Below, piece after piece: positions 5,332 through 39,225 of a DNA stretch of 64,000 nt (its first letter is position 1; the number at the start of each line of letters is the position of its first letter). The stretch comes from Verrucomicrobiota bacterium (lineage in GTDB: Bacteria > Verrucomicrobiota > Verrucomicrobiia > Palsa-1439): the NCBI GenBank assembly GCA_003152315.1, contig PLZV01000037.1, positions 41,679 to 105,678 of the forward strand, written 5' to 3'. A program made the position numbers and the translations under genes. The notes beneath the pieces were generated by a model. That model made no database searches. It was not told the origin of the DNA and was given only the letters and a program-made list of their open reading frames with translations.

Positions 5332-6699
5332 ATGCGACCACAACGGAAGTCCAATACACGCCGGATTTTCACTGCGGCAGGAGTGGTGACTGGTTTTGGC
5401 ACCATGAATGACCACACTATCACAATCGGTGAACGCGAGGGCTGGGGTAAACCCCAGCTTTTCGGCATATCTGCCATTGACCAGCGCCAGCACATCTACG
5501 TCATCGGAAAAACTGGTTCTGGTAAGACGACATTGCTGCGCAATTTGATTTTGCAACATATCGCCCTTGGACATGGAGTCGGTTTGATTGATCCCCACGG
5601 GGATTTGGCCGAAGAACTATTGAACCATATTCCTCCGCATCGTGCCGATCATCTAGTATATTTCAATCCGGGCGACATCGAGTTTCCCATAGGGCTTAAT
5701 TTGCTCGCCAATGTCGCCCCCGACGACCGCCATCTCGTGGCCTCGGGCATTGTGAGCGCGTTCAAGGGCATTTGGCGCGACTCATGGGGTCCGCGTCTGG
5801 AATACATCCTGTACAATGCCGTATCGGCACTTCTTGATTGCCGGAATGCCACCCTTTTGGGCGTCAACCGTATGCTTACGGATGACACATTCCGGGCCAA
5901 GGTGATTCGGCAGAGCAAAGACCCATTCATCCGAGCGTTTTGGGCAGAGGAATATGCCGGATACGACGAGCGTTTCAAACGGGAGGCCATTGCACCGATT
6001 CAGAACAAGCTCGGCCAATTCCTCTTGAATCCAGTGGTCCGCAACATTCTCGGCCAGGTCAAAGCGAAGGTGAACATTCCGTTCGTGATGGACAACCAGC
6101 GTCTTTTCATCGCCAATTTGTCCAAAGGCAGGCTTGGACACGACAAAGCAAACTTGCTCGGCTCCCTGCTTACGACTCAATTTCAACTTGGTGCCATGGC
6201 ACGAGCAAACCATCCCGAAGAAGAACGGCGTGACTTTTACCTTTTCATTGACGAGTTCCAGAACTTTTCCACCGATGCGTTTGCTTCGATTCTTGCGGAA
6301 GCGCGCAAGTATCGTCTTTGTTTGACCCTTTCGCATCAATACATAGACCAGCTCCCACTGCCGATTCGTCAGGCGGTCTTTGGCAACGTAGGGACGCTCA
6401 TTGCCTTTCGCATCGGCAGCACCGATGCCGAGGTGATGGAAAAGGAGTTTGGTAATACGATCCCCGCAAGCGTCCTTGCCGACCTTGACCGCTATGAGGC
6501 AGTGGTGAAATTGCTCGTGGAGGGAAGCAACCTCGAATCGTTCCGGGCTAAGATGCTTCCGCCATTAGAAAATCGCATCGGACGGAAGGGCAAACTCATT
6601 GCACGATCACGCGAGCGATTCTCCACTCCGCGTACCAAGATTGATGAAAAGCTGAGTCGGTGGATGGGTGGACTGATTGTACCGAAAATCGACGGGTAA
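5332..6699 (+). CDS. VirD4/TraG/TraD-like P-loop ATPase (coupling-protein-type, FtsK/HerA superfamily), no TM anchor
   Basis: Walker A VIGKTGSGKTTLL, then GLIDPHGD, and Walker B FYLFIDEFQNFST (LDEFxxL-type, as in T4SS coupling proteins). Paralogous to the core of the 20931-24035 protein. An alternative start at 5404 is possible. Confidence 0.65.
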   Translation: MRPQRKSNTRRIFTAAGVVTGFGTMNDHTITIGEREGWGKPQLFGISAIDQRQHIYVIGKTGSGKTTLLRNLILQHIALGHGVGLIDPHGDLAEELLNHIPPHRADHLVYFNPGDIEFPIGLNLLANVAPDDRHLVASGIVSAFKGIWRDSWGPRLEYILYNAVSALLDCRNATLLGVNRMLTDDTFRAKVIRQSKDPFIRAFWAEEYAGYDERFKREAIAPIQNKLGQFLLNPVVRNILGQVKAKVNIPFVMDNQRLFIANLSKGRLGHDKANLLGSLLTTQFQLGAMARANHPEEERRDFYLFIDEFQNFSTDAFASILAEARKYRLCLTLSHQYIDQLPLPIRQAVFGNVGTLIAFRIGSTDAEVMEKEFGNTIPASVLADLDRYEAVVKLLVEGSNLESFRAKMLPPLENRIGRKGKLIARSRERFSTPRTKIDEKLSRWMGGLIVPKIDG

Positions 6700-6720: not shown

Positions 6721-7266
6721 TCATACAGCAGCGCGCTGTGTGGTTTCGTCAAGGCGGCTGTATTCCGAGCCATTGTGCGCACTGACCCAGAGTTCAAGTC
6801 TTTCCATCTGATTTCCAACAATCGTCATGATAAAACAATCTAGTTCGTGCTGAGATTTACGAAAGGCATCTGCCATAGAATTCAAGTCCAACCGAGACGG
6901 TGTCGGTTTCGGTTCCGGATGAGTGTGCCATTCACCGATAAAATGCAACCCCTTATCAAAATATTGTCTAATGAGCCGTCGCTGCAAAATCCGATTCGGA
7001 ATGAACAATGTCCTCCACCGTTTATCGGCCACGTTCGGAGGAGAAGCTTCGACTACCAGAATCAACGGAAAGTCAAATTCTGCAAAGAGAAGCCCGCCAG
7101 CTTCTGGTTCGTCTTCTTTTTGGCGATATGTTGAAAAGATTTCTAATGCTTTCCTAGTCACAATAAGCTCTTGTTTGGAATGTGGAAAAGCAAAGCGGCG
7201 TGAATTTAAGAATTTTTCTGAGCGCATACGCCGCAAGTATTTGATTTGGTCCAATTTTTTCGGCAT
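6721..7266 (-). CDS. JAB/MPN (JAMM) metallopeptidase, Cap3-like deubiquitinase-type
   Basis: Complete JAMM motif: upstream Glu (EAGGLLFAEF) plus EWHTHPEPKPTPSRLD (HxHx7Sx2D). Overlaps the upstream E2-E1 gene, consistent with operon coupling. Confidence 0.8.
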   Translation of the reverse strand: MPKKLDQIKYLRRMRSEKFLNSRRFAFPHSKQELIVTRKALEIFSTYRQKEDEPEAGGLLFAEFDFPLILVVEASPPNVADKRWRTLFIPNRILQRRLIRQYFDKGLHFIGEWHTHPEPKPTPSRLDLNSMADAFRKSQHELDCFIMTIVGNQMERLELWVSAHNGSEYSRLDETTQRAAV

Positions 7267-8993
7267 ATTCTTGAATAGCCAGTACGGCTAACCTCCGGCT
7301 TCCACATTTCTGTGAGATTGGCTTCCACCGATTTAAAATGCTCAGCGCTACTGATCCAAGTATTTAGAAAAGAATCTGGAGAAGGGCTAAGGAGTGATTC
7401 AACGACAATAGACGCAATCATCGAGGCAACCGGCATTAATGCAGTCGGACCATAATGCTGATAGTGGGTGCATCCACCAGGTTCTTTCGAAAAGGGTGTT
7501 TTTCCAAAATCAGCTACTGCCTGACTGAACCGTCCGAATTCATTTGCAGCGCATTCAAAACATCCACCGTTCGGTCCGACAACCAAGCAATGTCCTGCTA
7601 CAGCATGCGGTTCGAGCCAACCCAAAACCAACGGGGACATTTGTATTTTACGTGACAATTCGTTCAACGGGCGCTCACATCGCCACTCACCAGTGGTTGA
7701 GACTACCAAATGGTATTCCGCGAAAAGATTTGGATTAGACCTGAATATATCTCTCCAATCTTTGGGAATGCCTTTAATACTCAGATGAGGCATCTCACGC
7801 GTTAATTCTTCGGCGAGGGCTTCGGCCTTCGAACGTCCTACAGACGACGCTCCCAAGATATGCCGACCAAGATTCTCCCAACCAAGATTGTCATTATCTG
7901 TCAATGTGAGATGGCCGATACCCGCACGACTTAAAAGATGAGCAACATATCCACCCAATGAACCGCATCCGATTAACAAAACAGATTTTTTGGAAAGGTC
8001 TCTGCCATCGCCCCCTCTCGAATGAATCCACTGGTGATCGACCCGACAGACAACGCGTCTTATTACGGCATTGGAGGCAAGCATTCCTACAGCACGTTTG
8101 CGCAATAGATCCGCCGGAATCTTTTCTAAGCGGAAGCCGCGAGTGATCTCAGGTGACTGTCGTAAGTGCCCAAGCACAGGAAAAATAACGCCTCCCAACG
8201 TCACCCCTTCACTTTCCTTTTGAATAAGCAGGACGAGACCTTCCTCAGAACCATTTGCGACGTGTTCTTTTATCAGGTCAGCAACTGAAGAGTCGTTAGT
8301 CCCTGCAAGGGTCAATAAGTCTCTCAGCGCGTTCGGGTAGTCGCCGGGAAGTAGTGGGGGATTCAAACTAATCGCCAAACCAAGCCTGCTCGCTTTTAGT
8401 TCAGAGGGTTTCCCTGTGTGATTTAAAATCCAGCTGTTTATTCGTTCCATCGATGAAGCGACACAAATATATTCTTTGCAGAAGACAACGACAAAACGTT
8501 TGCCAAGTTGTTCCGGTGGATCAATTAGGACAATAGATTGGTCCTGGAGTGTTGCCGAGCGATTCCAATAAGAAGTAAATTCATCACGAAAATCAAGCGG
8601 GTCTGTTCCTTTCAGAATCTTTTCGGCATCATCAAATACGTAACGAACAATGGCTGCCGGGTCCTTGCTGTTAATTGCCGCCGAATTCGGGATAGTACAG
8701 ATAAAACCACGTGCATCTATATGCGGATTTTTAAATACGAGATCTCTCGCATCGGCAATGCAGGCGATAGGGGCTTCATCGGGAAAATCCCGAGGAAGCC
8801 CCACATTTACGATCCATTCCTTATCCAAAATGCGGAACGATTTTCGCCACACAGTAGGACATTCAGCCAGGAGCTGCGGAGCATCCTTTGCTGATACCAG
8901 CTCAAATGCTGAATCCGTGGCCAAATCGGCTTGGACCGCTTCAAGGGCGTGATGAAGGCGCTCTCGCAAAAAGTTTTGCGATTCATCACCCAT
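7206..8993 (-). CDS. E2-E1 fusion protein (N-terminal UBC-like E2, C-terminal ThiF/MoeB-like E1), Cap2-like
   Basis: E2 signature FKNPHIDARGFICTIP (an HPN-like NPH followed by a catalytic Cys). E1 Rossmann LLIGCGSLGGYVAHLL plus TDNDNLGWENLGRH. Zinc motifs CFEC ... CGVC. ATG at 8993 with a GGAGG ribosome-binding site; an alternative GTG sits at 9008. Confidence 0.8.
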   Translation of the reverse strand: MGDESQNFLRERLHHALEAVQADLATDSAFELVSAKDAPQLLAECPTVWRKSFRILDKEWIVNVGLPRDFPDEAPIACIADARDLVFKNPHIDARGFICTIPNSAAINSKDPAAIVRYVFDDAEKILKGTDPLDFRDEFTSYWNRSATLQDQSIVLIDPPEQLGKRFVVVFCKEYICVASSMERINSWILNHTGKPSELKASRLGLAISLNPPLLPGDYPNALRDLLTLAGTNDSSVADLIKEHVANGSEEGLVLLIQKESEGVTLGGVIFPVLGHLRQSPEITRGFRLEKIPADLLRKRAVGMLASNAVIRRVVCRVDHQWIHSRGGDGRDLSKKSVLLIGCGSLGGYVAHLLSRAGIGHLTLTDNDNLGWENLGRHILGASSVGRSKAEALAEELTREMPHLSIKGIPKDWRDIFRSNPNLFAEYHLVVSTTGEWRCERPLNELSRKIQMSPLVLGWLEPHAVAGHCLVVGPNGGCFECAANEFGRFSQAVADFGKTPFSKEPGGCTHYQHYGPTALMPVASMIASIVVESLLSPSPDSFLNTWISSAEHFKSVEANLTEMWKPEVSRTGYSRICRKNWTKSNTCGVCAQKNS

Positions 8994-9354
8994 GCCGACC
9001 GCCTCCACGAAGATCTACCGGACTTGTAGGCGTCTGACGTGCTATGCCCGCGTCGCGGTCAGCAATTTTGCAATCAACACACTCTGGCTGTTCCAAAAGG
9101 TTGTCGTTCGGCTTCCCATCTGCGTGAGATCGAAGAAACGGAGGTTTGCCATTTTCTCGCACCACCAATACTTCGCACTCCTTGCCCGTCGTTTTGTCGA
9201 TTGTATAAAAACCCGCTTTCTGGTTTTCGATGAGAAAAATGGCGTCTTCGCGTGTAAATCGCCATTTTTCCTGGAGATTGCCGACATGCGTGATATGCTC
9301 ATGAGGACTGTGATGATGAGGCTTATTAATACAAGTTATTTGATATTTTTTCAT
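8986..9354 (-). CDS. small His-rich protein with disordered C-terminal tail ending LRGG-GRHG (candidate ubiquitin-like conjugation substrate or precursor)
   Basis: ATG at 9354 with an aggaag ribosome-binding site. Sequence MKKYQITCINKPHHHSPHEHITHVG... ends ...TSPVDLRGGGRHG. Its 3' end overlaps the E2-E1 start by 8 bp. Similarity to any DUF family is uncertain. Confidence 0.55.
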   Translation of the reverse strand: MKKYQITCINKPHHHSPHEHITHVGNLQEKWRFTREDAIFLIENQKAGFYTIDKTTGKECEVLVVRENGKPPFLRSHADGKPNDNLLEQPECVDCKIADRDAGIARQTPTSPVDLRGGGRHG

Positions 9355-9533
9355 GACGTTCGGCTTCCTATAGTTTTTGTTCGGTTGAACTACTTGCGAG
9401 CCTTGACACCTCTCGCGGTTTATTCGCGATACAGTAAGACTTCGCAAAACAGTATGTCAAGCCATCTTTTTGCGAATTTCTTCTGGACAAAACGTCCTTA
9501 GGACTTTAAAAAGCAACATGAAATTATTAAGCC
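9355..9533. promoter_or_regulatory. divergent promoter/operator region between the conjugation-like operon and the HTH-peptidase pair
   Basis: 179-bp AT-richer intergenic region. It contains a perfect 9-bp inverted repeat ttcgcaaaa-N17-ttttgcgaa (9441-9475), a ttgaca -35-like hexamer (about 9398) and short cgcgag/ctcgcg palindromes. Confidence 0.4.
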
Positions 9534-9935
9534 ATGAATTCCGTAGGTGAGCGAATTAAGGCCCGTCGGCTGGAACTGGGGTGGACCCAAGAAGAGTTGT
9601 GCAAAAAGGCAAACATCAGCACAGGCTTTTTATCAGATCTTGAAAATAGCAAGCGTAGTGTAAGCGCCGAAACACTTCTAGGCATTGCGCACGTGCTTTC
9701 GCTCAGTCTCGATTATTTAATGAAGGGCGATTCAACACAAATTCAAACAGCACAAGTTCAATTCCCTGCGAATTTGGCCGAACTTGCAAAGACAGAGAAC
9801 ATCTCGTTCGTCCAAGCCTTGACCGTTTTAGATATGAGAATGCAAATCGTTGCTCACCGAAGCGTGTCAAAATCGGATGACTTGGAGAATTTTGATTGGA
9901 AGAAGTTTTACGATTCGGTCAAAGAGTTCTTATGA
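9534..9935 (+). CDS. XRE-family helix-turn-helix transcriptional regulator (CapH/ImmR-like)
   Basis: N-terminal HTH_XRE signature GERIKARRLELGWTQEELCKKANISTGFLSDLENSKRSVSAETL. Overlaps the downstream peptidase start by ATGA. Confidence 0.8.
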   Translation: MNSVGERIKARRLELGWTQEELCKKANISTGFLSDLENSKRSVSAETLLGIAHVLSLSLDYLMKGDSTQIQTAQVQFPANLAELAKTENISFVQALTVLDMRMQIVAHRSVSKSDDLENFDWKKFYDSVKEFL

Positions 9936-10987
9936 AAAAACTGGATAGCGAATACGAGATCCACAAGCTGGCGGCAGGGCTGAAAGTCGATTGGCAGCAA
10001 AATGCTGTGCAAAATATCATTGCTCTATGCCACGACAAAATCTCTAAATGGACCAAGGGAATTTCTAAAATTCGATCTATCCAAGAACTAGAAGTGCTGG
10101 TTTGCGAAAAGGTGAAATTGGTCTTTGAAGAGATTTACAGAGAAGACGACCTAAAAGCAGTCATCCGAAAGTATGTAAGTTTGGGTGAACCGATTTTTTC
10201 CACGCTTAAAACCGACTTGGACGAGAAGACTTTTGCAACTCTAATTGAAAGACGTAGAATTGATGGCAATTCACAAGATCGATATGTGGCAGTCATTGAT
10301 TGCAGAGGAAGTAAGGCACCGCGGCGCTTTTTTTCGCGATGGCATGAAATTGCTCATTTACTAACACTTCAAGGCCAGCTTCAACTTCCTTTGCATCGTT
10401 CCACCACGGATCGAAGTCCTACGGAAAGACTGATGGATACGATTGCTGGAGAAATCGGATTTTATGATCCTCTTTTCCGCCCTATCTTACGTGATGAAAT
10501 TGCAAAGGAAGGTGGCTTCGCCTTTACCACGGTCGAAAGAGTCAGAGGCCGATTTTGCCCGGAGGCCAGCTTTCAGGCGACGTTAAATGCGTGTGTTAAT
10601 CGGCTTGATGTGCCCATGCTTCTGGTGGAAATTGGTTTGGGGTATAAGAAGGAAGAAGAAAGGCAAATATTTTCTTCCCAGACAACTCTATTTTCTGAGG
10701 CACATCCGAAACCAAAGTTGCGAGTTTCGACAATAATAGGCAATGATAGGGCTCGCGGCACTTCGTTAAAGATTCACCGAAATATGCAGGTTCCTGCCGC
10801 CTCCGTGTTACATCGTTTCTTTTTCAAAGAAGACGATCTCCCCGCAAAAGAGCTAGAGGGTTTTGAAAACCTGAACATATGGCGGCACTCGGACGGCGGA
10901 GCGCTTGCAAACCTTTCAGTTAGAATTCGAGTTCGTCGTTTCGAAAGTTCAGTAATTGCGTTAATTTCGCCGGCGAGGCTTACCTGA
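9932..10987 (+). CDS. ImmA/IrrE-family zinc metallopeptidase (COG2856; CapP/ImmA-like)
   Basis: HExxH motif within RWHEIAHLL. ATGA overlap with the upstream HTH gene gives the canonical HTH plus ImmA-peptidase two-gene module. Confidence 0.75.
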   Translation: MKKLDSEYEIHKLAAGLKVDWQQNAVQNIIALCHDKISKWTKGISKIRSIQELEVLVCEKVKLVFEEIYREDDLKAVIRKYVSLGEPIFSTLKTDLDEKTFATLIERRRIDGNSQDRYVAVIDCRGSKAPRRFFSRWHEIAHLLTLQGQLQLPLHRSTTDRSPTERLMDTIAGEIGFYDPLFRPILRDEIAKEGGFAFTTVERVRGRFCPEASFQATLNACVNRLDVPMLLVEIGLGYKKEEERQIFSSQTTLFSEAHPKPKLRVSTIIGNDRARGTSLKIHRNMQVPAASVLHRFFFKEDDLPAKELEGFENLNIWRHSDGGALANLSVRIRVRRFESSVIALISPARLT

Positions 10988-11508: not shown

Positions 11509-12585
11509 CTATGCACCGGCCATGATGGCCGCACGCGTCTTCGGACCGACAATGCCAGTCTGACTGATATGGTGACCTTTCTGATACTTCATAATCGCAG
11601 CCTCAGTTAAACTTCCAAAAAGCCCTTTCACATTACCGGTCGGTATGACCAAAAATCCTTTTTCTACAAGGAATGTCTGCACGGCGCTTACATCGCTGCC
11701 GGTATCGCCAATGTGGAGATCATGCGTCAGCACCAGCGAAGCTGAAGCGGTAGGGGCGACAACGCCTCCCGTGTCGGCAACAACGGCTGCCTCTGTCAAC
11801 GGACCGGCTGTGCCAGTAGGAGTGATCCGCCTTGTGCGCTGATAGCTCTCTACCGCCGTCCTGGTAAGCAAGCCGTAAAGACCATAGGCAATGCCGGCTG
11901 GCATGTTGAGAAGCCCTTTACTGACCAGGAACTTCTGCAATGCAGTGACATCGGGGCCACTATCGCCGACTTGGAGATTTCGAGAGTATGGGGAGCTTGG
12001 TCCACTGACGACTGGTGCAGTAGAGGGTGTGCAGGTCAATCCTGCGGGGCAATTCGACACCGAAGGAGCATTCAGGGAATTAAGATACGCCGTGGTAGAA
12101 GCCCCCGGAGCGAGAAGAGTGGCAAGCACGCTTGGCGAGACAGAGCCACCACCTATAGAAACACTTCCACCACTGGATTCTGGCGGAGGCGGCGAAGGTG
12201 GGCTTGAATTTGCACAAATCGTAGCTGATGGAGTGATCGTATTCGTGACTGTGCTACCGCCGGAATATGAAAGCGAGAGGGTCGAAGCGGAACCCGTGCA
12301 CACGTTTGAAGTGACATTAGACTGCACGTCAGTCGATAACTGGTTCAGAGTCGGAGAAGAGACGGTGATAGAGGAGCCAGAAGCAAGTGTCACTGTGAAA
12401 TTAGATGCATTGACGGTGATAGACTGGATGACGGCGCTTGAGCCGGAGATGTTCAGGGTATAGCCGCCGACGAGAATGTGGACATCCGTGGTCAGTGATA
12501 CATCGTTGAAGGCGGCAAGGGCTATAATAGGAACGAAGAACCCAACTAGGATAATCGTTGATAGTTTAGATATTTGGTGAGACAT
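11509..12585 (-). CDS. secreted protein with Ig-like Ser/Thr-rich region and two C-terminal peptidoglycan-binding (PG_binding_1) domains
   Basis: TM/signal segment, then two repeats of the type LQVGDSGPDVTALQKFLVSKGLL...GLYGLLTRTAVESYQ and LHIGDTGSDVSAVQTFLVEKGFL...GLFGSLTEAAIMKYQ. The most likely ATG is at 12585; the ORF track extends to 12648. Confidence 0.6.
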   Translation of the reverse strand: MSHQISKLSTIILVGFFVPIIALAAFNDVSLTTDVHILVGGYTLNISGSSAVIQSITVNASNFTVTLASGSSITVSSPTLNQLSTDVQSNVTSNVCTGSASTLSLSYSGGSTVTNTITPSATICANSSPPSPPPPESSGGSVSIGGGSVSPSVLATLLAPGASTTAYLNSLNAPSVSNCPAGLTCTPSTAPVVSGPSSPYSRNLQVGDSGPDVTALQKFLVSKGLLNMPAGIAYGLYGLLTRTAVESYQRTRRITPTGTAGPLTEAAVVADTGGVVAPTASASLVLTHDLHIGDTGSDVSAVQTFLVEKGFLVIPTGNVKGLFGSLTEAAIMKYQKGHHISQTGIVGPKTRAAIMAGA

Positions 12586-12598
12586 AATCTGCTTGCGG

Positions 12599-13945
12599 CT
12601 AATACGTAGGGAACCCCGACAAATCAACCGGCGTGAGCGTTTGTCCACCGAGACTCGTTATGGCGGCGTTGATAGCCGATATATTACCCACTATATCCGA
12701 CGCTCCGTCAGGAAAATAACCCGATTTGTAATACCATGTCCCCAACGCAACGGCCTGTCCATTGATGACCATCAAAATAGGAGAGCCACTGTCCCCCGAG
12801 GCTATGGGCAAGTACCAACCCGCATACTGGCTCGTATTCGGGGAATAGATGTACTGCCCCGGCTGAATGATGGCAACAACGTCGCTGTCGAATGCCACAG
12901 CCGATCCTATGCTCAGACTTCTGTATTGATTCGTGAAAAGAACGAGCGGATGTGCGTAAGAAATGGCAGCTTTCGTCATCTTTGTCCCGTCTGTTCCATC
13001 AGAAATGCCGACACTACCCGAGGCGAATACTTTCGCCGGTGTGATTCCAGAAGGAACGGCTGACGAGAGCTTCATCACTTGTATGTCCACGCCGACATGA
13101 GCGCTTGCAGTGATGGTCCTTGAAACGGTCGTGTTGTCATTCTTGACGAAATAAACCGTGGTGCCATTCGGTATATACGCGTGATTGGATTGGATCAAAA
13201 TATCAGGAGTCACGAGGATCCCATTAAATCTGGCACCCCCATACGGATTGCTTCCGGTCGGTGGAGGGCTGTCCCAATCGCTCCAAACGGGAATAGCGGT
13301 CAGGTCGACGGCACCAGTAAAGATGTTTGGATTTCTGGTATATACGTGATTGACATCATCGGTCGAGGAGTAGATGTTCTGCGTGCTTGCCGACGGCGTC
13401 TTGCCTGAGATCATGGCACTGATCTCGCTGAAGATGTCGCTTCCGAGCGATCCCGATACCAGGCTGTTAAAAATCGTGTTGTACGAATTATGGGTGTGCA
13501 ACATCGGGCATTCGATGCCGCGTGTAAGCCGGCCAATCGTAACCCCGAATGTTGCAGTGCCGTCGCCGACATACGACACTACGCCATTGAAATCCACGGT
13601 GCCGTAGGACGGATCTTTGGCGCTGAAAATAGGCGTGACATTATCAGCGCCAAGCACGGTTAAGACGCATGAATATATGACGCTGCCCGAATTATAGAAA
13701 TTATATACGACATCATTTGTGTTGATCGTACCGTTTGATGAACCCATGGTGATCGTACTTGACGATGTGCTGGCAATAGAGAAATCCTCTATTTGCGCTC
13801 CGCTCAAAGCAGAACCGAAAAGCTGCGGGGCAGTGGTTGTCGCAACGCTCGTATAGTGTATCGTAAAATAAGCCTGCGCATTGCCATGAACCAACAGTGA
13901 GAAACCGACTGCGACAACACATCTTATTATGGTCTTCATTCTCAT
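12599..13945 (-). CDS. secreted trypsin-like (S1 family) serine peptidase
   Basis: Signal peptide MRMKTIIRCVVAVGFSLLVHGNAQA. Canonical GDSGSP active-site serine motif in the C-terminal domain. Confidence 0.65.
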   Translation of the reverse strand: MRMKTIIRCVVAVGFSLLVHGNAQAYFTIHYTSVATTTAPQLFGSALSGAQIEDFSIASTSSSTITMGSSNGTINTNDVVYNFYNSGSVIYSCVLTVLGADNVTPIFSAKDPSYGTVDFNGVVSYVGDGTATFGVTIGRLTRGIECPMLHTHNSYNTIFNSLVSGSLGSDIFSEISAMISGKTPSASTQNIYSSTDDVNHVYTRNPNIFTGAVDLTAIPVWSDWDSPPPTGSNPYGGARFNGILVTPDILIQSNHAYIPNGTTVYFVKNDNTTVSRTITASAHVGVDIQVMKLSSAVPSGITPAKVFASGSVGISDGTDGTKMTKAAISYAHPLVLFTNQYRSLSIGSAVAFDSDVVAIIQPGQYIYSPNTSQYAGWYLPIASGDSGSPILMVINGQAVALGTWYYKSGYFPDGASDIVGNISAINAAITSLGGQTLTPVDLSGFPTY

Positions 13946-13946
13946 G

Positions 13947-15578
13947 CTATTTTATGAGAGTCCACGGTTCGGAACCCATGCACAACCACAAATGATGGTT
14001 CGCTTTGTTATAGACGCTCGTCCCTTCAAGCGTCGAATTGCAGGTGAATCCGGTGGATGTTGACGTAACGGCTCCGCGATAACCGCCGTTTATATCGACG
14101 CCAACTGAAGGCGCGGGATTACCAACGCCTATTTTGCCGCCATCAAATACAATGATATTGGGAATATCACCAGATTGTTGATCTCCAGTGACAACGCTAT
14201 TGGTAAATATGAAGTCACCGCCTTCTCCATTCTGGAATAGCATTATTCCATCCCCAAGTTGGAGATCACCAGAACTATCTTCGGACGCTATCCTTTGCGT
14301 GTCAGCGAAACCACTACTGGGAGTGAGATGGTCAAATACTATTCCACTACTATCACTGCTCAAATTTATACTACCTGTGCTTGTCAAAGTAGTTCCAGTA
14401 ACTGTATCTGCCGACGTAGTTCCATTATATGTCGCCGTCGTTCCACTCAATGACCACAGTCCGAGCGGATTCAGATTTGCAACTGTCTGCGAGCCATCGC
14501 CTATTTTCCCGTGTTTCGTGTCAGTCTCATAAACCATCTCGCCTGCTGCGGGTATTATGCCGGATAAGGCTGAGGCGGTTCCTTCTCGCGGAATAACAGC
14601 GGCATTCAAGTTTCCGCTGCTATCAAGGAGCGTATTGTTGCCGATTTTGATCGTGCCACCCGGCGCAAGGGTGAGGCTCGGCGCAGTCAGCACAGTCCCG
14701 TCAAATGTGAAGCCGGCATTACTGCCAAAAGAACCGCTTGCATTGAACTGCACCGTGCCCGAAGCCGCGGCAGGGCTAGTCGCGCCGCCCCCGCCGCTCG
14801 ACAGACATGTTCCATTTACGGCAAAGCATCCGGCGGCGATATTGATGCCGTTCCCGACCGTGGAGGTCGCGGAGGAACCGGTCAGATTGAGATAGGTTCC
14901 TTGTATTCCACCAGAAAACGTCGTTGTGCCGGTGTTGGAGAATGCCTGCAAGCCGGTAAATGTATTCGCGGTGTATGCCTTCGGGATAGTCGATGAACCA
15001 TTGATATATGAATTGACATCAGCGTTTGTGTAATTTGCTGATCCACCGCCGACGCACGAACCGTTTATCGAGAAACACCCTCCGGTCAGATTGATACCGT
15101 TCGCAAAGGTGGAACTGGCTAATGAGGACGTGATATTGAGCAGAAGCGTCTGGAGCCCTCCGGCAAATGTCGAAGTAGCTGTCGATGAAGTAGCCGTGTA
15201 GGATGCGGCTGTGGGAGTCCCTGTGGCAGTCAGCGTCGAAGAGTTGATCCACGAAGAGAGCATGCCGGCCACGCCGCCCGACAGACTACCGCCTCCGCTT
15301 CCTCCGACGCACGAACCGTTTATGGAGAAACAGCCGGAAGTAAGATTCAATCCGCCGGCAAAGGTCGAGGTAGATACATTGGTTGATGCCAGATTCGTCA
15401 CCGTGGTCGTACCGGCTGAGAGCGTGCTTCCAAGCGTTGCCGCTCCGGAAACATTGAGCGCACCGCCGGTGACGATGTCGGTGCTGATCGTGGTCGCGGC
15501 AAAAGCACTGTGAACAACCAAGATAGAGAATACGACAACTACAAAGGTTGTCGAGATGACCTGTGTATATGGCTTCAT
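13947..15578 (-). CDS. secreted Gly/Thr-rich repetitive protein with recurring Cys-containing motif (fiber/adhesin-like)
   Basis: Signal/TM segment, then at least four repeats containing G(C)F(S/A)(I/V)NG(S/T)C(V/L)(G/S)G embedded in T/S/G-rich beta-repeat sequence. Confidence 0.55.
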   Translation of the reverse strand: MKPYTQVISTTFVVVVFSILVVHSAFAATTISTDIVTGGALNVSGAATLGSTLSAGTTTVTNLASTNVSTSTFAGGLNLTSGCFSINGSCVGGSGGGSLSGGVAGMLSSWINSSTLTATGTPTAASYTATSSTATSTFAGGLQTLLLNITSSLASSTFANGINLTGGCFSINGSCVGGGSANYTNADVNSYINGSSTIPKAYTANTFTGLQAFSNTGTTTFSGGIQGTYLNLTGSSATSTVGNGINIAAGCFAVNGTCLSSGGGGATSPAAASGTVQFNASGSFGSNAGFTFDGTVLTAPSLTLAPGGTIKIGNNTLLDSSGNLNAAVIPREGTASALSGIIPAAGEMVYETDTKHGKIGDGSQTVANLNPLGLWSLSGTTATYNGTTSADTVTGTTLTSTGSINLSSDSSGIVFDHLTPSSGFADTQRIASEDSSGDLQLGDGIMLFQNGEGGDFIFTNSVVTGDQQSGDIPNIIVFDGGKIGVGNPAPSVGVDINGGYRGAVTSTSTGFTCNSTLEGTSVYNKANHHLWLCMGSEPWTLIK

Positions 15579-15877
15579 TGGTCTTATAGGGTACGATTAA
15601 AGAAACGACTGATTTGTAAGAAACGTACCAGTTATTGTAGCACTTCTTGTGTTGTGTATTATCCCCAGATTTGATGCGGTGTAAGCGGGTGCCTCCCTTC
15701 AATATCATCACGGATAGCGAGATACGCATAAGCAAAGGAGGAAGTCATTCTCACAACGGCCAGCGACTTGCATTAAAGCGCAAACCTTGACGCCTTCTTC
15801 GTTTGCTCCCTCTCCGGCAAGGTGGAGCGATGGATTCCCGTCTTCCACGTTTCAAACGCACCACCACCGTTGCTCGC

Positions 15878-16735
15878 ATGGCACTGACGGAGCGCGACCG
15901 CCAAATCATCCGGCTCGTTCACCGGCATCGTTTTCTCCGTTCTCCGCAAATTGTCGCCTTGATCGGCGGCAGTTCGCAGCAGCTTTTGCGACGATTACAA
16001 TTGCTGTATCACCATGGATATTTGGAACGCCCACGCGCCCAGATTGATTATTACCACCAGGGCGGCTCCCGCCACATCATCTACGGTTTAGGGAATAAGG
16101 GAGGGGGGATGTTGTTGAAACAAGAACTTGGTGTTGCTTTTCGTGAATTCTCATGGGGCGAGAAGAACCGCGCCGTTGGCCGGATGTTCCTTGAACATGC
16201 GCTCTTAGTCTCGGATGTGATGGTGACGATTGAACTTGCTTGCCGTGAGCGTGGAATTCGGCTCGTTACCGAGAGAGAACTTGTGCTTCCCGGCAAGCAC
16301 CAACCGTTCCGGTGGAGAGTGAACATACACAACCACGTGAAACTTGGCGTCATCCCGGATCGCGTGTTCGCCTTGGAACTTCTCGATGCCAGCGGCTCAA
16401 GCCGGCGGGCATATTTCTTTCTTGAAGCTGACCGGGGCACGATGCCGGTCACGCGTCGAAATCTTTCCCAGACTTCCTTCTACCGCAAGCTCCTCGCCTA
16501 TGAAGCAACCTGGACGCAAAACTTGCATCGCATACGTTTTGGTTTCCATCGCTTCCGCGTGCTCACCGTCACCACCAGTACCGCGCGGGTGAAGTCACTT
16601 GTAGATGCCTGTTCACAATTGGAACGCGGGCATGGACTCTTTCTGTTTGCCGACCGGACAATTTTGTCTGGTGATATGTTTTCCTCGATATGGCAGACCG
16701 GCAAGCCGGGCGAAACCGGCAGTTTGTTGGATTAG
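15878..16735 (+). CDS. replication-relaxation family protein (plasmid/ICE type)
   Basis: N-terminal winged-HTH-like LTERDRQIIRLVHRHRFLRSPQIVAL typical of the replication-relaxation family. The ORF track extends to an upstream ATG at 15803. Confidence 0.6.
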   Translation: MALTERDRQIIRLVHRHRFLRSPQIVALIGGSSQQLLRRLQLLYHHGYLERPRAQIDYYHQGGSRHIIYGLGNKGGGMLLKQELGVAFREFSWGEKNRAVGRMFLEHALLVSDVMVTIELACRERGIRLVTERELVLPGKHQPFRWRVNIHNHVKLGVIPDRVFALELLDASGSSRRAYFFLEADRGTMPVTRRNLSQTSFYRKLLAYEATWTQNLHRIRFGFHRFRVLTVTTSTARVKSLVDACSQLERGHGLFLFADRTILSGDMFSSIWQTGKPGETGSLLD

Positions 16736-16865: not shown

Positions 16866-17894
16866 ATGCCAAAATCAAAATTCGTTGACTTCAAAGCCGT
16901 GAAAGAGGCCATCACCATAGAACAGGTGCTTGAGCACTACGGCTTGCTTGACCAGTTCAAACGGAGCGGAGACAGCCTCAGTGGGCCATGCCCGATCCAC
17001 AAGGGAGAGAACTCGACTCAGTTCCGTGTCAGCATTTCCAAAAACTGCTGGAACTGTTTCGGGGAATGCAAACGCGGTGGCAACATCCTCGACTTTGTCA
17101 GTCTCACGGAGGACGTAAGCATCCGAGAAGCGGCCATCCGCATTTCGGATTGGTTCAAGCCCACCTTCGACAAGCCAGCGCCGAAACCAGAGTCGCCGAA
17201 CGCGGATCAGAAACCGAAGCAGGGCAAAGCACCTCGCGCAAAGAGCACACCGAAGCCGAGCAGCGACGCGCAAGAAACCGGGCCAAATAAGCCACTGGGT
17301 TTCGAGCTTCGCAACTTGGACGCCGAGCATCCGTATTTGCTAGGGCGTGGCCTCACCGAGGAAGGCATCGCGGAGTTTGGCCTGGGTTACTGCGACAACG
17401 GCAGCATGCTGGGTCGCATCGTCATTCCGATCCAGAACGTGGCCGGTCAGATTGTGGCGTACGCAGGCCGTTGGCCGGGCGATCCACCCGAAGACACGCC
17501 AAAGTACAAGTTCCCCGCCGGGTTCAGGAAGTCGATGGAGGTATTCAACCTTCATCGTGCGCAACAGGTTGGCACCACCGTGCCGCTGGTGATCGTCGAA
17601 GGTTTCTTCGACTGCATTCATCTCTGGGAAATTGGTTTGGAGCGAGTGGTTGGCCTCATGGGCAGCCAATTGTCGAAGCCCCAGGAAGAGTTGATTGTCA
17701 AATCACTTCACGAGGATGACCACATAATCGTGATGCTCGACGAGGACGAAGCGGGCCGCACCGGACGCGAGCAGGTGTTGCAACGACTTGCGATACGAGC
17801 GTTCGTAAAAGTCTTCCAATTCCCGCAGGAAGGTCAACAGCCCACCGACTTGTCGGGCGATGAATTGCGGGAATTGGTCGGAGGTGCGGAGTGA
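16866..17894 (+). CDS. DNA primase, CHC2 zinc finger + Toprim domain (DnaG/TraC-like)
   Basis: CHC2 finger GPCPIHKGENSTQFRVSISKNCWNCFGEC. Toprim signature VIVEGFFDCIH ... MLDEDEAG. AGGAG ribosome-binding site. Confidence 0.8.
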   Translation: MPKSKFVDFKAVKEAITIEQVLEHYGLLDQFKRSGDSLSGPCPIHKGENSTQFRVSISKNCWNCFGECKRGGNILDFVSLTEDVSIREAAIRISDWFKPTFDKPAPKPESPNADQKPKQGKAPRAKSTPKPSSDAQETGPNKPLGFELRNLDAEHPYLLGRGLTEEGIAEFGLGYCDNGSMLGRIVIPIQNVAGQIVAYAGRWPGDPPEDTPKYKFPAGFRKSMEVFNLHRAQQVGTTVPLVIVEGFFDCIHLWEIGLERVVGLMGSQLSKPQEELIVKSLHEDDHIIVMLDEDEAGRTGREQVLQRLAIRAFVKVFQFPQEGQQPTDLSGDELRELVGGAE

Positions 17895-18205: not shown

Positions 18206-18485
18206 CACACTCGTGACCACGCCCAAGTTCCTCTTGGGTCAGACCGTCATCACCGCAAACGCGAACGCGGTCTTGCCCGAGTTGGACGTGATAGTGGCCC
18301 TGCAACGTCACCAAAGCGGTGACTGGGGCGACGTGGACAACCACGACCGCCAGATAAACGAGGACGACCTTCGTAGCGGAGGCAGGCTCTTCTCCGTGTA
18401 TCACACCACCGGTGGCACCAAGTTCTGGATCATCACCGAATGGGATCACTCAGTAACCACGGTCCTGATGCCGAAAGATTACTAA
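18198..18485 (+). CDS. hypothetical protein
   Basis: Translationally coupled to the upstream ORF and followed by a terminator. No recognizable motif. Confidence 0.4.
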   Translation: MSDTLVTTPKFLLGQTVITANANAVLPELDVIVALQRHQSGDWGDVDNHDRQINEDDLRSGGRLFSVYHTTGGTKFWIITEWDHSVTTVLMPKDY

Positions 18486-18492
18486 TCAAAAG

Positions 18493-18518
18493 GGCGATCC
18501 ATTCGGGTCGCCTTTTTT
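18493..18518 (+). terminator. rho-independent terminator
   Basis: Hairpin ggcga-tccattcggg-tcgcc followed by TTTTTT. Confidence 0.5.
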
Positions 18519-18631
18519 CATGCTTGCCGCGCCCGGCAAGACTGCACGTCTTTGTTGAAACTGCCCCGGGCCATACGCTTCAGAGTGGGTTCACAGGGTT
18601 CTTTCCAAAACAACAACCACAGGAGAAGTGT

Positions 18632-19489
18632 ATGAAAAATCAAGCGTATGAACGTATCACCGAACGGATTGTTTCCTTGCTCGCGCAAGGCACCGTTCCT
18701 TGGCACAAGCCATGGCAGGCAAAAACTGGTTGGCCGCGAAACTATGTCTCTCAAAAAACGTATCGCGGTATCAATGTGTTCTTGCTCTCCGCCATGAGCT
18801 ACGAATCACCTTGCTGGCTCACGTTCCGTCAGGCATCACAGCTTGGCGGCACCGTCCGCAAGGGCGAGAAGGCGTGTCCCGTCGTCTTCTGGAAATCCCT
18901 GAAGATTGCGGACAAGGAATCTGGCGAGGACAAGAAAATTCCCCTGCTTCGCATCTATCACGTCTTCAATGCAGCCCAATGTGACGGATTGAATGATGCT
19001 CCACCCGTGACGGATGAAATCACCACGGTCAAACCGGCAGAGATTGTGGCGCACATGCCAGAGCCACCCGTCATCAAACACGGCATGGCCTGTGCCTTCT
19101 ATTCACCGCTCGAAGATTCCATCGGGATGCCCTTGCTGGAACGGTTCGATTCTGAGGAATGTTACTACGCCACCTTGTTCCACGAACTCATTCATTCCAC
19201 CGGCCACGAGAAGCGGTTGAAGCGGGCAACACTCGCTGAAAACAGGGGCTTCGGTTCCGATCCCTACTGTAAAGAGGAATTGATTGCCGAAATGGGCGCA
19301 GCGTTTCTGTGCGGGCAGGCCGAGATTGCCGAGCGGACGATTGATAGTTCTGCTGCGTATATCAAAGGTTGGCTTGAGCGGTTGCGTAATGACAAGACGC
19401 TGATTATACAGGCGGCAGCGCAGGCGCAGAAGGCGGCAGACTTAATTCTTGGCCGTACGTTTCAAGAAAGCGAGGCCGCCCATGACTGA
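18632..19489 (+). CDS. ardC: ArdC-like antirestriction protein (N-terminal ssDNA-binding DUF1738-type domain + C-terminal zincin metalloprotease)
   Basis: N-terminal TVPWHKPW...YRGINVFLL typical of ArdC. C-terminal HExxH motif within LFHELIHSTGHEKRL. AGGAG ribosome-binding site before the ATG at 18632. Confidence 0.8.
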   Translation: MKNQAYERITERIVSLLAQGTVPWHKPWQAKTGWPRNYVSQKTYRGINVFLLSAMSYESPCWLTFRQASQLGGTVRKGEKACPVVFWKSLKIADKESGEDKKIPLLRIYHVFNAAQCDGLNDAPPVTDEITTVKPAEIVAHMPEPPVIKHGMACAFYSPLEDSIGMPLLERFDSEECYYATLFHELIHSTGHEKRLKRATLAENRGFGSDPYCKEELIAEMGAAFLCGQAEIAERTIDSSAAYIKGWLERLRNDKTLIIQAAAQAQKAADLILGRTFQESEAAHD

Positions 19490-20930: not shown

Positions 20931-23900
20931 ATGTCCCAGCTCGACGAACAATTGAGCGCAGAGTTTCACCGCTGGGAACAACGTGGACGCGGCTGGCAGG
21001 TGTTTTCCGAACCCGTTCAACCCGAACCGGCTTTTGTCCCTTTCAATGGCCATTATCTCCCTGCCACAGCGCCCATTGATGACGGAGCCAGGCCGACCTT
21101 TTTGAGTTCGCTGGTGCAAAAAGTGAGCCGAAGGTTAAGCACCGAAACGGTAGCACCACCGGCTATGCCCGAACCCGAAGAAGAGCTAGAACCGACCGCA
21201 CTCATCCGTGAATCACTGGTGGAATTACAGGCATCGCTCCCGGACAAGCTCGATATTTCCAAGGAAACGTTCGAGCAGTTTCTTCTGAATCTTTCATTGT
21301 GCCGCGAACCCATCGCCTTTGAACTGCTTGGCACGCATACAAAGGTTGCGGCGCAGTTTGTTGCCAGTAAGAGCGACGTTGCGTTGCTCCGCCGCCAGTT
21401 GCAGGCGTATTTTCCAGAGGCCGTGTTTGTCACCCGTGAAGGCGGCTTGGATCAAGCATGGGATACGAGCCAGGGCGATGAAGTCTTGGCGGTGGAATTC
21501 GGCCTTAAACACGAATTCATGCTGCCGCTTGCCAGTGGGAGACTTGACCCGTTCATTGGGATCGTGGGCGCGCTCTCAGAGTTGCAGCCGGGTGAACTAG
21601 GGCTTTTCCAAGTCCTGTTCCAGCCGGTGCAGCATCCGTGGGCGGAAAACATTGTGTTTTCCGTAACGCATGCTGACGGCAAGCCGTTTTTCATCAATTC
21701 ACCGGAACTGGCCGGGGCAGCGGAAAACAAAGTCGCCCACCCACTATATGCCGCCGTTGTCCGCATTCTGCTTCGCGTAGGTGAGTTTGACCGCCTGTTG
21801 CAACTGGCCCGCGACCTGGCCGGATCACTGCGCGTCTTCGCGCACCAGAACGGCAACGAACTCATCCCGCTTCATAACGACGATTACCCGTTCGAGGAAC
21901 ACATTGAGGACGTGTTGCGCCGCCAGACCCGGCGAACGGGAATGTTGTTGAACAGCGACGAGCTTACCGGCTTTGTCCATCTGCCGTCGAGTGCCGTTCG
22001 CTCGCCCGTTTTTCAACGGCAAACGACCAAGACCAAGGCGGCACCCGCCATAGTCCGCAAGCGGGGCCTGTTGCTCGGCACTAATGACCATGCAGGCGAA
22101 ATAGTTGAAGTCAGATTGTCCGCCGAACAGCGCACACGGCACACGCACGTGATCGGTGCAAGCGGCACGGGCAAGTCCACACTGCTTTTCAATCTCATCC
22201 GGCAGGACATTGAAAACGGTGAAGGCGTGGCCGTGCTTGACCCTCACGGTGATTTGATTGACCGCATTTGCGGCATCATCCCGCCGGAGAGGATTGACGA
22301 CGTGGTATTGCTCGACCCGGCGGACGATCAATTTTCAATCGGATTCAATATTCTCTCGGCCCATTCCGATTTGGAGAAAAATCTTTTGGCGTCCGACTTG
22401 GTTGCCGTCTTCCAACGTCTCTCGACCAGTTGGGGCGACCAGATGAACAGCGTGCTACAAAATGCGATTCTTGCGTTTCTGGAAAGCGACCGGCGCGGCA
22501 CCATTGCTGACGTGCGCCGATTCCTGATTGAACCCGCCTTTCGGAATGAATTCCTGAAATCCGTCAAAGACTCCGAAGTCGTCTATTACTGGCAGAAAAG
22601 TTTTCCCCACCTCTCCGGCAACAAATCCATTGGCTCGATTTTGACGAGGCTCGACACATTCCTTGCCCAAAAGCCCATCCGCCACATGGTCTCCCAGCGG
22701 GAGAACCGGCTGGATTTCGCGCACATCATGGATACTGGCAAAATCTTTCTGGCGAAACTGCCGGAGGGACTTTTGGGCCGGGAAAACTCATATTTGCTCG
22801 GCACATTGATGGTGTCAAAGTTCCAGCAGATTGCCATGAGCCGGCAGGCGCAGCAGATCGCCGCCCGGCGGGACTACTGGCTTTACATCGACGAGTTCGC
22901 CAATTTCATCACGCCCTCTATGGCGGAGATTTTGAGCGGGGCGCGAAAGTATCGCATCGGCCTGACGCTGGCACATCACGAGTTGCATCAGTTGCAGCGC
23001 AATCCCGAAGTGGCGAGCGCCGTCATGTCGCATCCCTACACGCGAATCGTGTTTCGTGTTGGCGATGACGACGCTAAGAAACTTGCCGAAAGTTTTTCAT
23101 ATTTCGAGGCGAAGGATTTGCGGAACTTGGAGACCGGACAAGCCATTGTGAGGGTAGAGCGTGGCGATTTTGATTTTAACCTCACCGTTCCTTTGCCGGA
23201 GAAACCGGACGAAGCGGCAGCCACCGCACGACGGCAGGAAGTCATAACGTGTTCGAGAAAAAAATATGGCACAGCACGGGCGGACATTGAGACCCAGCTT
23301 GCACAGTCGCGGGCAACACTTGATGGGCAGCCTGTCAGTCGCACCATTTCCAATCCGCCACTGGCGTTGAAGACATCCGTTCCCGACCGCACGCCAGCAC
23401 ATTCGGAAATGCCGGAACCTGCGGGACCACCGAAGGCGGCAGTGCCGCCCGACAAGGATGAAGCCACGCCGTCGAAAGCGCCACAGACGGTTACTGGTGG
23501 CCGTCCGCAAGGATCACCACGCGATTTAGGCCGGGGCGGGGCGCAGCACCAAGCCACTCAGAAACGCATCAAAGAGGCAGCGGAAGGCCTTGGTTTCCGC
23601 AGTATCATTGAAAAGCCGGTGTTGGATGGTCAGGGGAGCGTGGACTTGTGGTTGGAGCGCACCGGCCAGGAAATCGCCTGTGAAATCTCCATTACAACGA
23701 CCATTGACCATGAAGTAGGCAATGTCGCCAAGTGCTTGAAGGCCGGGCTTCCGAAAGTGGCCGTGATTTGTCTGGACGAGGAACGCTTGCAGAAGATCAG
23801 CAATGCCGTTTCCGGCAGTCTTGGCGCAACATTAGCGGCGCAGGTTGAGTATTTCCAGCCCGCCGCGTTCATCGCGCATTTGAAGGCGTTGCCGCCGCCA

Positions 23901-24035
23901 GCACCAGAGACTCCCGAAACCACATATGGCGGTTACAAGGTCAAACGCTCGGTGCCAAAATTGTCCGCAACGGAGCAGAAGCAGAAAGAGGACGTTGCCA
24001 ACCGCATCATGGCCGAGACGATGCGCCGAAAGTAA
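20931..24035 (+). CDS. large multidomain VirD4/TraG-like P-loop ATPase (about 380-aa N-terminal unknown domain + ATPase core + Pro-rich linker + C-terminal possible PD-(D/E)xK-like domain)
   Basis: Walker A HVIGASGTGKSTLL, then AVLDPHGD, and Walker B WLYIDEFANFIT. The core is clearly paralogous to the 5332-6699 product. The C-terminal region reads ...VDLWLERTGQEIACEIS...K. Confidence 0.7.
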   Translation: MSQLDEQLSAEFHRWEQRGRGWQVFSEPVQPEPAFVPFNGHYLPATAPIDDGARPTFLSSLVQKVSRRLSTETVAPPAMPEPEEELEPTALIRESLVELQASLPDKLDISKETFEQFLLNLSLCREPIAFELLGTHTKVAAQFVASKSDVALLRRQLQAYFPEAVFVTREGGLDQAWDTSQGDEVLAVEFGLKHEFMLPLASGRLDPFIGIVGALSELQPGELGLFQVLFQPVQHPWAENIVFSVTHADGKPFFINSPELAGAAENKVAHPLYAAVVRILLRVGEFDRLLQLARDLAGSLRVFAHQNGNELIPLHNDDYPFEEHIEDVLRRQTRRTGMLLNSDELTGFVHLPSSAVRSPVFQRQTTKTKAAPAIVRKRGLLLGTNDHAGEIVEVRLSAEQRTRHTHVIGASGTGKSTLLFNLIRQDIENGEGVAVLDPHGDLIDRICGIIPPERIDDVVLLDPADDQFSIGFNILSAHSDLEKNLLASDLVAVFQRLSTSWGDQMNSVLQNAILAFLESDRRGTIADVRRFLIEPAFRNEFLKSVKDSEVVYYWQKSFPHLSGNKSIGSILTRLDTFLAQKPIRHMVSQRENRLDFAHIMDTGKIFLAKLPEGLLGRENSYLLGTLMVSKFQQIAMSRQAQQIAARRDYWLYIDEFANFITPSMAEILSGARKYRIGLTLAHHELHQLQRNPEVASAVMSHPYTRIVFRVGDDDAKKLAESFSYFEAKDLRNLETGQAIVRVERGDFDFNLTVPLPEKPDEAAATARRQEVITCSRKKYGTARADIETQLAQSRATLDGQPVSRTISNPPLALKTSVPDRTPAHSEMPEPAGPPKAAVPPDKDEATPSKAPQTVTGGRPQGSPRDLGRGGAQHQATQKRIKEAAEGLGFRSIIEKPVLDGQGSVDLWLERTGQEIACEISITTTIDHEVGNVAKCLKAGLPKVAVICLDEERLQKISNAVSGSLGATLAAQVEYFQPAAFIAHLKALPPPAPETPETTYGGYKVKRSVPKLSATEQKQKEDVANRIMAETMRRK

Positions 24036-39151: not shown

Positions 39152-39225
39152 GCGAGCGTAGCTCAGTCTGGTAGAGCGTCACGTTGCCAACGTGAATGTC
39201 GAGGGTTCAAATCCCTTCGCTCGCT
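39152..39225 (+). tRNA. tRNA-Gly (anticodon GCC)
   Basis: gcgagcgtagctcagtctggtagagcg D-arm. Anticodon loop ttGCCaa. T-arm gagggttcaaatccctt. Acceptor stem cgctcgc followed by tcca. Confidence 0.85.

Follow-up and report, generated by a model that had tools for sequence, protein, structure and literature searches.

In type II systems of cyclic oligonucleotide-based antiphage signaling (CBASS), such as the E. cloacae CdnD-Cap2-Cap3 and V. cholerae DncV operons (Ledvina et al., Jenson et al. 2023), a nucleotidyltransferase of the cGAS/DncV-like kind (CD-NTase) is the substrate of Cap2, an E2-linker-E1 fusion, and is encoded together with Cap3, a JAB peptidase. E. cloacae CdnD ends ...KPAEPQKTGRFA (...KTGRFA), its extreme C-terminus sits AMP-conjugated in the adenylation site of the Cap2 E1 domain, and Cap3 cuts exactly after the last CdnD residue (Ledvina et al. 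preprint). In Thoeris operons with Cap2 and Cap3, described in a December 2025 preprint, the TIR proteins carry the typical C-terminal tail, so the module and the tail are portable (bioRxiv 10.64898/2025.12.03.692087). A separate line of work concerns DUF3892, described by Aravind and colleagues as a three-stranded meander plus helix that is often fused to Min-Wnt effectors and is proposed to sense viral RNA or modified ribosomes (eLife 2025 RP108061). Operons consisting of the regulators CapH and CapP plus DUF3892 alone have also been reported, CapH/CapP regulation involving repressor cleavage stimulated by single-stranded DNA or DNA damage (Lau et al. 2022, bioRxiv 10.1101/2022.04.27.489752), and published work predicts that DUF3892 proteins act as defence sensors. 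Here we analyzed a 64,000-nucleotide stretch of a Verrucomicrobiota genome (contig PLZV01000037.1, positions 41,679 to 105,678; hereafter the window) and found a three-gene cassette encoding a DUF3892 protein with a CD-NTase-type tail, a Cap2-type E2-E1 fusion, and a Cap3-type JAB peptidase. Our reading of this cassette, with a probability of roughly 0.65, is of a conjugation system derived from CBASS that has lost the cyclic-nucleotide signal and effector and whose Cap2 substrate is a DUF3892 protein in place of the CD-NTase.

The cassette comprises three overlapping open reading frames (ORFs) on the minus strand (9354..6721), all of them located where a preliminary description of this DNA had placed them. 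The first gene (8986..9354) encodes the DUF3892-tail protein, the predicted E2-E1 substrate, which has 122 aa with a core at residues 1-92 and a disordered C-terminal tail; with 8 His residues it fits its earlier label as a small His-rich protein. The second (7206..8993, within an ORF spanning 7206-9008) encodes the Cap2-type E2-linker-E1 fusion of 595 aa from the ATG at 8993, and the third (6721..7266) encodes the Cap3-type JAB/JAMM isopeptidase of 181 aa, or 168 aa from an internal Met. The DUF3892 and E2-E1 genes overlap by 8 nt, and the E2-E1 and JAB genes by 61 nt (22 nt with the JAB start at the internal Met). Type II CBASS shares with the cassette this order of overlapping genes (substrate, Cap2, Cap3), an E2-linker-E1 fusion plus JAB with full-length matches to CBASS models, a substrate whose disordered C-terminal tail ends G-R-x-(G/A), and helix-turn-helix (HTH) or HTH-M78 regulators upstream in at least two of the closest CBASS relatives. 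In contrast, the cassette lacks a CD-NTase, a cyclic-nucleotide signal, and any effector (SAVED, TIR, or other), and its substrate is a 92-aa DUF3892 domain without known enzymatic activity, which makes the priming of a cyclase impossible as an output. Because the two defining features, cyclase and effector, are missing, the cassette is not CBASS, although its conjugation step is like that of type II CBASS.

Other described systems resemble the cassette in part. The nearest precedent for Cap2 and Cap3 attached to a substrate other than a CD-NTase is the Thoeris TIR operons, whose substrate is a signal-producing TIR protein and which retain an effector, whereas the cassette has neither. The DUF3892-only operons of Lau et al. 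share with it the DUF3892 domain, HTH and metallopeptidase regulators, and defence-island contexts, but their DUF3892 has no tail, E2-E1, or JAB. The link of DUF3892 to conjugation machinery is new; we found no description of DUF3892 with Cap2/Cap3 in the searchable literature, where Burroughs and Aravind 2020 (J Bacteriol) may mention the neighbourhood. Bil and Bub systems likewise have a JAB protease, and in Bil the conjugation itself is the output, a ubiquitin-like protein (Ubl) being attached to a phage tail protein. However, Bil (BilABCD) uses a beta-grasp Ubl and separate E1 and E2 genes, neither of which occurs in the cassette, and Bub (6E) combines a Ubl with a DUF6527 (BubE) protease, whereas the scanned window ORFs include no DUF6527 protein and no Ubl. 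Sequence and tree position both identify the cassette enzymes as Cap2 and Cap3. The Bub/Bil-like reading offered in the preliminary description is not supported. The 6A type (an E2-E1-JAB triple fusion plus a metallo-hydrolase) is also a cyclase-less E2/E1/JAB system under CapH/CapP-like genes; it differs in that the cassette encodes JAB in an ORF of its own with a separate start, has no MBL-type gene next to it, and includes a DUF3892 substrate.

We compared the tail of the small protein with the C-termini of CD-NTases. The DUF3892-tail protein carries a disordered tail of ~30 aa ending PVDLRGGGRHG (SPVDLRGGGRHG), within a full ending pattern of ...QTP(K/T)SPVDLRGGGRHG, as in the window protein (...GIARQTPTSPVDLRGGGRHG) and the homologue P0003 (...GLTSQTPKSPVDLRGGGRHG); all 20 full-length homologue clusters (59-85% identity) end PV(D/E)LRGGGRHG, and the linker before the tail is variable. 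The last 22 codons, at 8989..9054 on the minus strand, are homologous to CD-NTase C-termini in the sister CBASS clade (...PKSPVDxRGGGRFG); the genes of these CD-NTases lie directly upstream of the window E2-E1's closest relatives in CBASS. These CD-NTases end ...ISNQTPNSPVDLRGGGRLG (L171), ...GLVSQVPKSPVDPRGGGRFG (L172), ...GLVSEIPKSPVDHRGGGRFG (L173), ...KHIPHSPVDTRGGGRFG (L174), ...AKPDSPVDIKGDGRFG (L009), and ...KTPSKVVDHRGGGRFG (L010), and the endings recovered beside the nearest Cap2 relatives were ...QVPKSPVDPRGGGRFG, ...IPKSPVDHRGGGRFG, ...TPNSPVDLRGGGRLG, and ...IPHSPVDTRGGGRFG. By homology, the tail is a transplanted CD-NTase-type tail and not a ubiquitin mimic, its likeness to the LRGG of ubiquitin being incidental. 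Given the homology to CD-NTase tails and the chemistry at the CdnD C-terminus, Gly122 is predicted to be the residue that is adenylated and conjugated, and it is very probable that the DUF3892-tail protein is the substrate of the Cap2-type enzyme.

The tail is also under purifying selection. Across 13 distinct DNA sequences, its last 11 residues are invariant except for one D-to-E change (in L098), despite two to five synonymous codons at 10 of the 11 positions. The sole invariant codon, CAT for His, holds the E2-E1 start codon: in 13/13 distinct sequences, the E2-E1 ATG lies inside the His121-Gly122 codons (CAT-GGN-TGA read as ATG-G..), and DUF3892 and E2-E1 are therefore translationally coupled throughout the family. 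When other proteins with the same tail were sought with a 40-column tail profile, only two fragments of DUF3892-tail proteins were returned. Pairwise divergence of the DUF3892-tail genes was poorly correlated with that of the E2-E1 genes (r = 0.28; window, L001, L004, L008, L093, L094, and L098), and between L004 and L094 identity is 88% in DUF3892 and 58% in E2-E1. This pattern suggests that the small gene has been shuffled between cassettes, which an invariant tail would permit.

The tail and the conjugation enzymes occur together. We recovered 19 tail-bearing loci (the window, L001-L008, L091-L099, and L112), and E2-E1 follows immediately downstream in all 17 that have more than ~170 nt of downstream sequence, while JAB is present in all 12 that extend far enough; the three genes are thus strictly co-conserved. 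In contrast, a Cap2-type fusion was found in 0/150 tail-less DUF3892 loci. Among the best 80 DUF3892 loci of 185,579 GTDB species-representative genomes, all were tail-less and the tail-bearing form was absent, and viral contigs yielded no relative of the cassette. The cassette is rare and so far known from metagenomes and metagenome-assembled genomes (MAGs) only. In one locus (L098:1796-10634), a complete type II CBASS lies upstream of, and next to, an HTH-M78 fusion and the DUF3892-tail/E2-E1/JAB cassette; the genes of this CBASS encode an HNH-SAVED effector, a CD-NTase whose C-terminus reads ...KPAGFA, a distant Cap2, and Cap3. Two Cap2/Cap3 pairs with different cognate tails therefore stand side by side.

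Both enzymes retain intact catalytic motifs, as the preliminary description had proposed. The window E2-E1, which is 100% identical to the metagenomic sequence P0031, contains Prok-E2_B and ThiF domains (Pfam), matches the PADLOC CBASS "E1-E2" model PDLC00836 over its full length (E 2e-138, residues 17-596 of 600), and has E. cloacae Cap2 (7TO3) as its best PDB match. In an alignment of 18 diverse homologues, down to 24% identity, the invariant or near-invariant residues include P95, H96, and the E2 cysteine C104 (NPH...GFIC), G347/G349/G352 of the GxGxxG motif (347-352), D371, N379, R382, and K394, and C483/C486 and C595 of the CxxC motifs (483-486 and 595-598). The Cys of the EPGGC loop (C513) is present, within one residue, in 18/18 aligned homologues. 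One motif had been written as DxDxxExxNLxR; this pattern is slightly off, the actual sequence being DNDNLGWENLGR. Separate phmmer searches of the PDB with the E2 region and with the C-terminal portion of E1 gave noise only. JAB was identified as Prok-JAB by Pfam (E 8e-13) and by the PADLOC JAB model PDLC00891 (E 3e-50), and its complete JAMM motif (E55...H113xH115x7S123xxD126) is conserved in the 7 orthologues compared. Alignment thus revealed no loss of catalytic residues in either protein.

A neighbour-joining tree of 116 proteins placed the E2-E1s with a known or inferred DUF3892 partner in a single clade nested among type II CBASS Cap2s, which supports the earlier view of a repurposed CBASS ancillary module or a new conjugation system. 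The nearest CBASS relatives of the window E2-E1 (46-57% identity) belong to bona fide type II operons, and the canonical operons read on the adjacent branches are HTH, CD-NTase, Cap2, and Cap3 (P0051); HTH-M78, SAVED, CD-NTase, Cap2, and Cap3 (P0082, L174); TIR, SAVED, CD-NTase, Cap2, and Cap3 (P0063, L171); SAVED, CD-NTase, Cap2, and Cap3 (P0071, L172, and P0075, L009); and DUF6602, CD-NTase, Cap2, and Cap3 (P0087, L173). A more distant branch holds CD-NTase, Cap2, Cap3, and DUF6602 (P0103, L010). Most simply, the effector and the body of the cyclase were lost from a type II CBASS, and a DUF3892 gene gained the last ~20 codons of the cyclase. HTH or HTH-M78 genes lie upstream of the P0051 and P0082 operons, and the ancestral CBASS was probably already under HTH/M78 control.

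Cyclase and effector were sought in the window. Pfam scans of 28 window ORFs detected no SMODS/DncV, SAVED, TIR, patatin, or DUF6527 domain. A CD-NTase hidden Markov model (HMM) built from 7 sister-clade CD-NTases and run against the six-frame translation of the 64-kb window had a single significant match, the DUF3892 gene, which it hit via the tail (E 9.5e-5); this gene is also the only window ORF that ends with the tail motif. The related loci L001-L008 contain no CD-NTase, neither the window nor related loci have a cyclic-nucleotide-activated effector (SAVED, TIR, patatin, DUF6602, etc.) beside the cassette, and the genes 3' of JAB differ between loci. The lack of a cyclase and effector nearby, first noted for a narrower region, is thus borne out by the Pfam scans of 28 window ORFs and, for the CD-NTase, by the HMM search of the whole window, and neither emerged just outside that region as part of the cassette.

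The small protein itself, which the preliminary description had left unassigned, is a clear member of Pfam DUF3892 (PF13031; residues 5-88, E 9e-16, scoring 58.5 bits where the gathering cut-off is 22.3). In an AlphaFold2 model built on 28 homologues, block confidence (pLDDT) was mostly 82-90 over the core (residues 1-92) and below 50 over residues 100-122, which are disordered. The model had no significant structural relative and no beta-grasp fold, and the DUF3892 family profile found no match among PDB sequences; the canonical beta-grasp Ubl that had been reported as absent is indeed not there. C8, H20, H23, and C92 are conserved and might be metal ligands. Shorter, tail-less DUF3892 relatives stop at ...ECxxxC(K/R)(I/L)(I/V)x. 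Their commonest neighbours are M78 peptidases (52/150 loci), and type I restriction-modification (R-M) genes, DndB, and SMODS nucleotidyltransferases also occur beside them. DndB-family proteins lie directly upstream of tail-less DUF3892 in two clusters of 7 and 6 loci (e.g., L162:1409-2808, L011:3879-5579), and a SMODS-family nucleotidyltransferase lies directly 3' of tail-less DUF3892, at a gap of at most a few tens of bases, in five (L121:76-1437, L104, L108, L111, and L061). The enzymes in these five loci carry no Cap2-type tail and are accompanied by no Cap2/Cap3; we therefore rejected them as evidence of an ancestral DUF3892-CD-NTase-Cap2-Cap3 order, and the pairing is an association separate from the cassette. 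In a single case (L145:3-1706), tail-less DUF3892 is closely preceded by a ThiF-JAB fusion that the contig start truncates, and this may be a second, independent link of DUF3892 to E1/JAB machinery.

Upstream of the operon, in divergent orientation, are two plus-strand genes for a candidate CapH-like repressor of the XRE family (9534..9935; HTH_3 E 1.5e-14, PADLOC capH E 1e-8) and a candidate HExxH (HEIAH) metallopeptidase resembling CapP/ImmA/IrrE (9932..10987, with an alternative TTG start at 9896). The ATG of the peptidase gene overlaps the HTH stop codon (ATGA), and an HTH orthologue occurs in the same arrangement in L008. The HEIAH protein had no Pfam match; together with its L008 orthologue it aligned to a profile of DUF3892-neighbouring M78 peptidases over the HExxH...E region (hhalign probability 94%, E 1e-7), and in pairwise comparison it matched the L001 M78 peptidase at E 0.006. 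The CapH/CapP-like regulators named in the preliminary description are thus present, the HTH by Pfam and PADLOC and the peptidase by profile comparison only. Cassettes carry three regulator forms: in the window and L008, a divergent HTH with the HEIAH protein; in L001-3, a divergent 132-aa gene with Peptidase_M78; and in L004-6 and L098, a same-strand HTH-M78 fusion. That three non-orthologous HTH plus metallopeptidase forms recur supports a functional link of the kind Lau et al. describe for CapH/CapP. A 38-nt block (TTGACATACTGTTTTGCGAAGTCTTACTGTATCGCGAA; 9423..9460, minus strand) with TTGACA and repeated GCGAA motifs, located in the intergenic region between the divergent genes, is common to the window and L008, and its flanks have diverged. 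The block overlaps an imperfect inverted repeat (9432-9449 with 9468-9485) and may serve the operon as promoter and operator; a generic sigma-70 promoter scan of the operon was not above chance.

The conjugation chemistry, regulation, and defence role that we propose for this CBASS-derived system would run as follows. The HTH repressor would hold the operon off until the M78-like peptidase, on a stress or invader cue, inactivates it and allows expression, as for CapH/CapP. The E1 domain would then bind the disordered DUF3892 tail and adenylate Gly122, the acyl group would be relayed as a thioester from C513 of the E1 loop to C104 of the E2 domain, and isopeptide ligation to a lysine of a target protein or of DUF3892 itself would follow; JAB would cleave the conjugates and so reset or limit the system. 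With cyclase and effector both missing, the payload would have to be the DUF3892 core, a module for binding or recognition that others propose to bind RNA or ribosomes, its covalent tethering or multimerisation blocking an invader or host process such as translation during phage or plasmid attack. This payload role is the weakest step of the model. On a bolder version, which we hold only tentatively, the DUF3892-tail protein would be a non-beta-grasp protein modifier, attached by Cap2 to invader or translation-machinery proteins that it recognizes, with conjugation itself as the immune output and no second messenger or killing effector. If so, recognition module and tag would be combined in one 13-kDa protein, giving a minimal, tractable model for Cap2 targets.

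Several points weigh against the CBASS-derived reading. The family profile aligned to 7TO3 over positions 248-451 only, and the proposed equivalence of C104/C513 to E. cloacae C109/C548 is based on position and family invariance. The E2-E1 tree carries no support values and ~15 genomic contexts were read, so that monophyly of the DUF3892-linked E2-E1s is likely but falls short of proof. Since all instances come from metagenomes and MAGs, an unlinked partner may lie elsewhere in the genome. The CapP-like label of the window HEIAH protein is a profile-level assignment with no Pfam match, and the conjugate, target, and phenotype are all predictions from sequence. Should DUF3892 conjugation prove functional, conjugation of the CBASS type can be an output in itself, beyond its role as a "primer" of cyclases. 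The cassette shows the Cap2/Cap3 pair with its short C-terminal recognition tail to be a portable unit, moved from a signaling enzyme to an unrelated small domain, the rest of CBASS being discarded. It points to a way of using protein conjugation in bacterial conflicts that needs no signal and is so far undescribed. The widespread and uncharacterised DUF3892 gains a concrete, testable biochemical handle, and a three-gene system with a 13-kDa substrate becomes available for finding the targets of Cap2 ligases.

We also considered whether the cassette serves the mobile element on which it resides, for example by using DUF3892 as a tag to modify host, replication, or conjugation factors and so to aid transfer, exclusion, or anti-defence. 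The cassette lies within a lower-G+C element (G+C 0.47-0.55 in window 1-26000, versus ~0.6 further right) with two large serine recombinases (163-2004 and 24374-25864), a Replic_Relax protein (15803-16735), a DnaG-type primase (16866-17894), ArdC (18440-19489), and two TrwB-like ATPases (5332-6699, which also matches PADLOC mad8 at E 2e-19, and 20931-24035). This agrees with the earlier placement of the operon on a mobile element beside an ATPase resembling a type IV coupling protein. Other copies stand beside TrbC/TraG genes, a relaxase with TrwB, or RepB, which would also suit a role in the service of the element. However, such elements commonly carry defence systems, some copies adjoin R-M-like genes (DNA methylase, and Mrr_cat at faint Pfam level) or a complete, distinct type II CBASS, the L008 copy sits in a non-mobile-looking chromosomal context, and the enzymes descend from an antiviral system. 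We thus consider an element-serving role unlikely.

A second alternative treats the DUF3892-tail protein as a ubiquitin-like precursor from which JAB would trim GRHG, so that the exposed LRGG diglycine is conjugated, as in ubiquitin or the Bil/Bub Ubls. JAB peptidases mature some Ubl precursors, the tail does contain LRGG followed by four residues, and all 8 terminal residues are invariant, as a recognition propeptide might be. The preliminary description had called the protein LRGG-tailed; the LRGG is present, but it is not terminal, GRHG coming after it. The sister-clade CD-NTases share the ending RGGGR(F/L)G, and the terminal GRHG aligns with GRFA and GRFG. In the E. cloacae complex it is the very last residue of ...TGRFA that is adenylated, and Cap3 cuts after the last residue (Ledvina et al. 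preprint). The small protein is, moreover, not a beta-grasp, and processing at LRGG appears quite improbable.

It is very improbable that the enzymes are an ordinary type II CBASS ancillary pair acting in trans on an unlinked CD-NTase with the small gene as an incidental neighbour. The genome is visible for 64 kb only and one relative (L098) adjoins a complete CBASS, but the CD-NTase there is paired with a distant Cap2/Cap3 of its own and ends in another tail (...KPAGFA), no other CD-NTase occurs near the cassette in the window or in the related contexts read, and the tail specific to this Cap2 clade sits, under selection, on the DUF3892 protein. Least plausible of all is a decaying, functionless CBASS remnant left after cyclase and effector loss, which the rarity of the cassette, absent among the best 80 DUF3892 loci of species-representative genomes and in viral contigs, might suggest, but which conflicts with ~20 diverged lineages (54-85% identity) in which all three ORFs and the catalytic motifs are intact, the tail is invariant, start and stop codons overlap, and regulators are kept.

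Some further observations concern annotation and the remainder of the window. Public gene calls miss genes of the cassette: JAB is uncalled at L002:8629-9144 and L003:5205-5720, and at L008:7505-7966 a spurious call on the opposite strand stands in place of the DUF3892-tail gene. Annotation-based surveys would accordingly undercount the cassette. Further right, a strong negative AT skew (-0.34) at 40001-42000 falls inside a 1043-aa ORF (39192-42323) and coincides with no tandem repeat. Three consecutive minus-strand genes (11509-15578) encode repetitive, probably secreted proteins, one with PG_binding_1 domains and one with Mtd_N, the N-terminal domain of the major tropism determinant.

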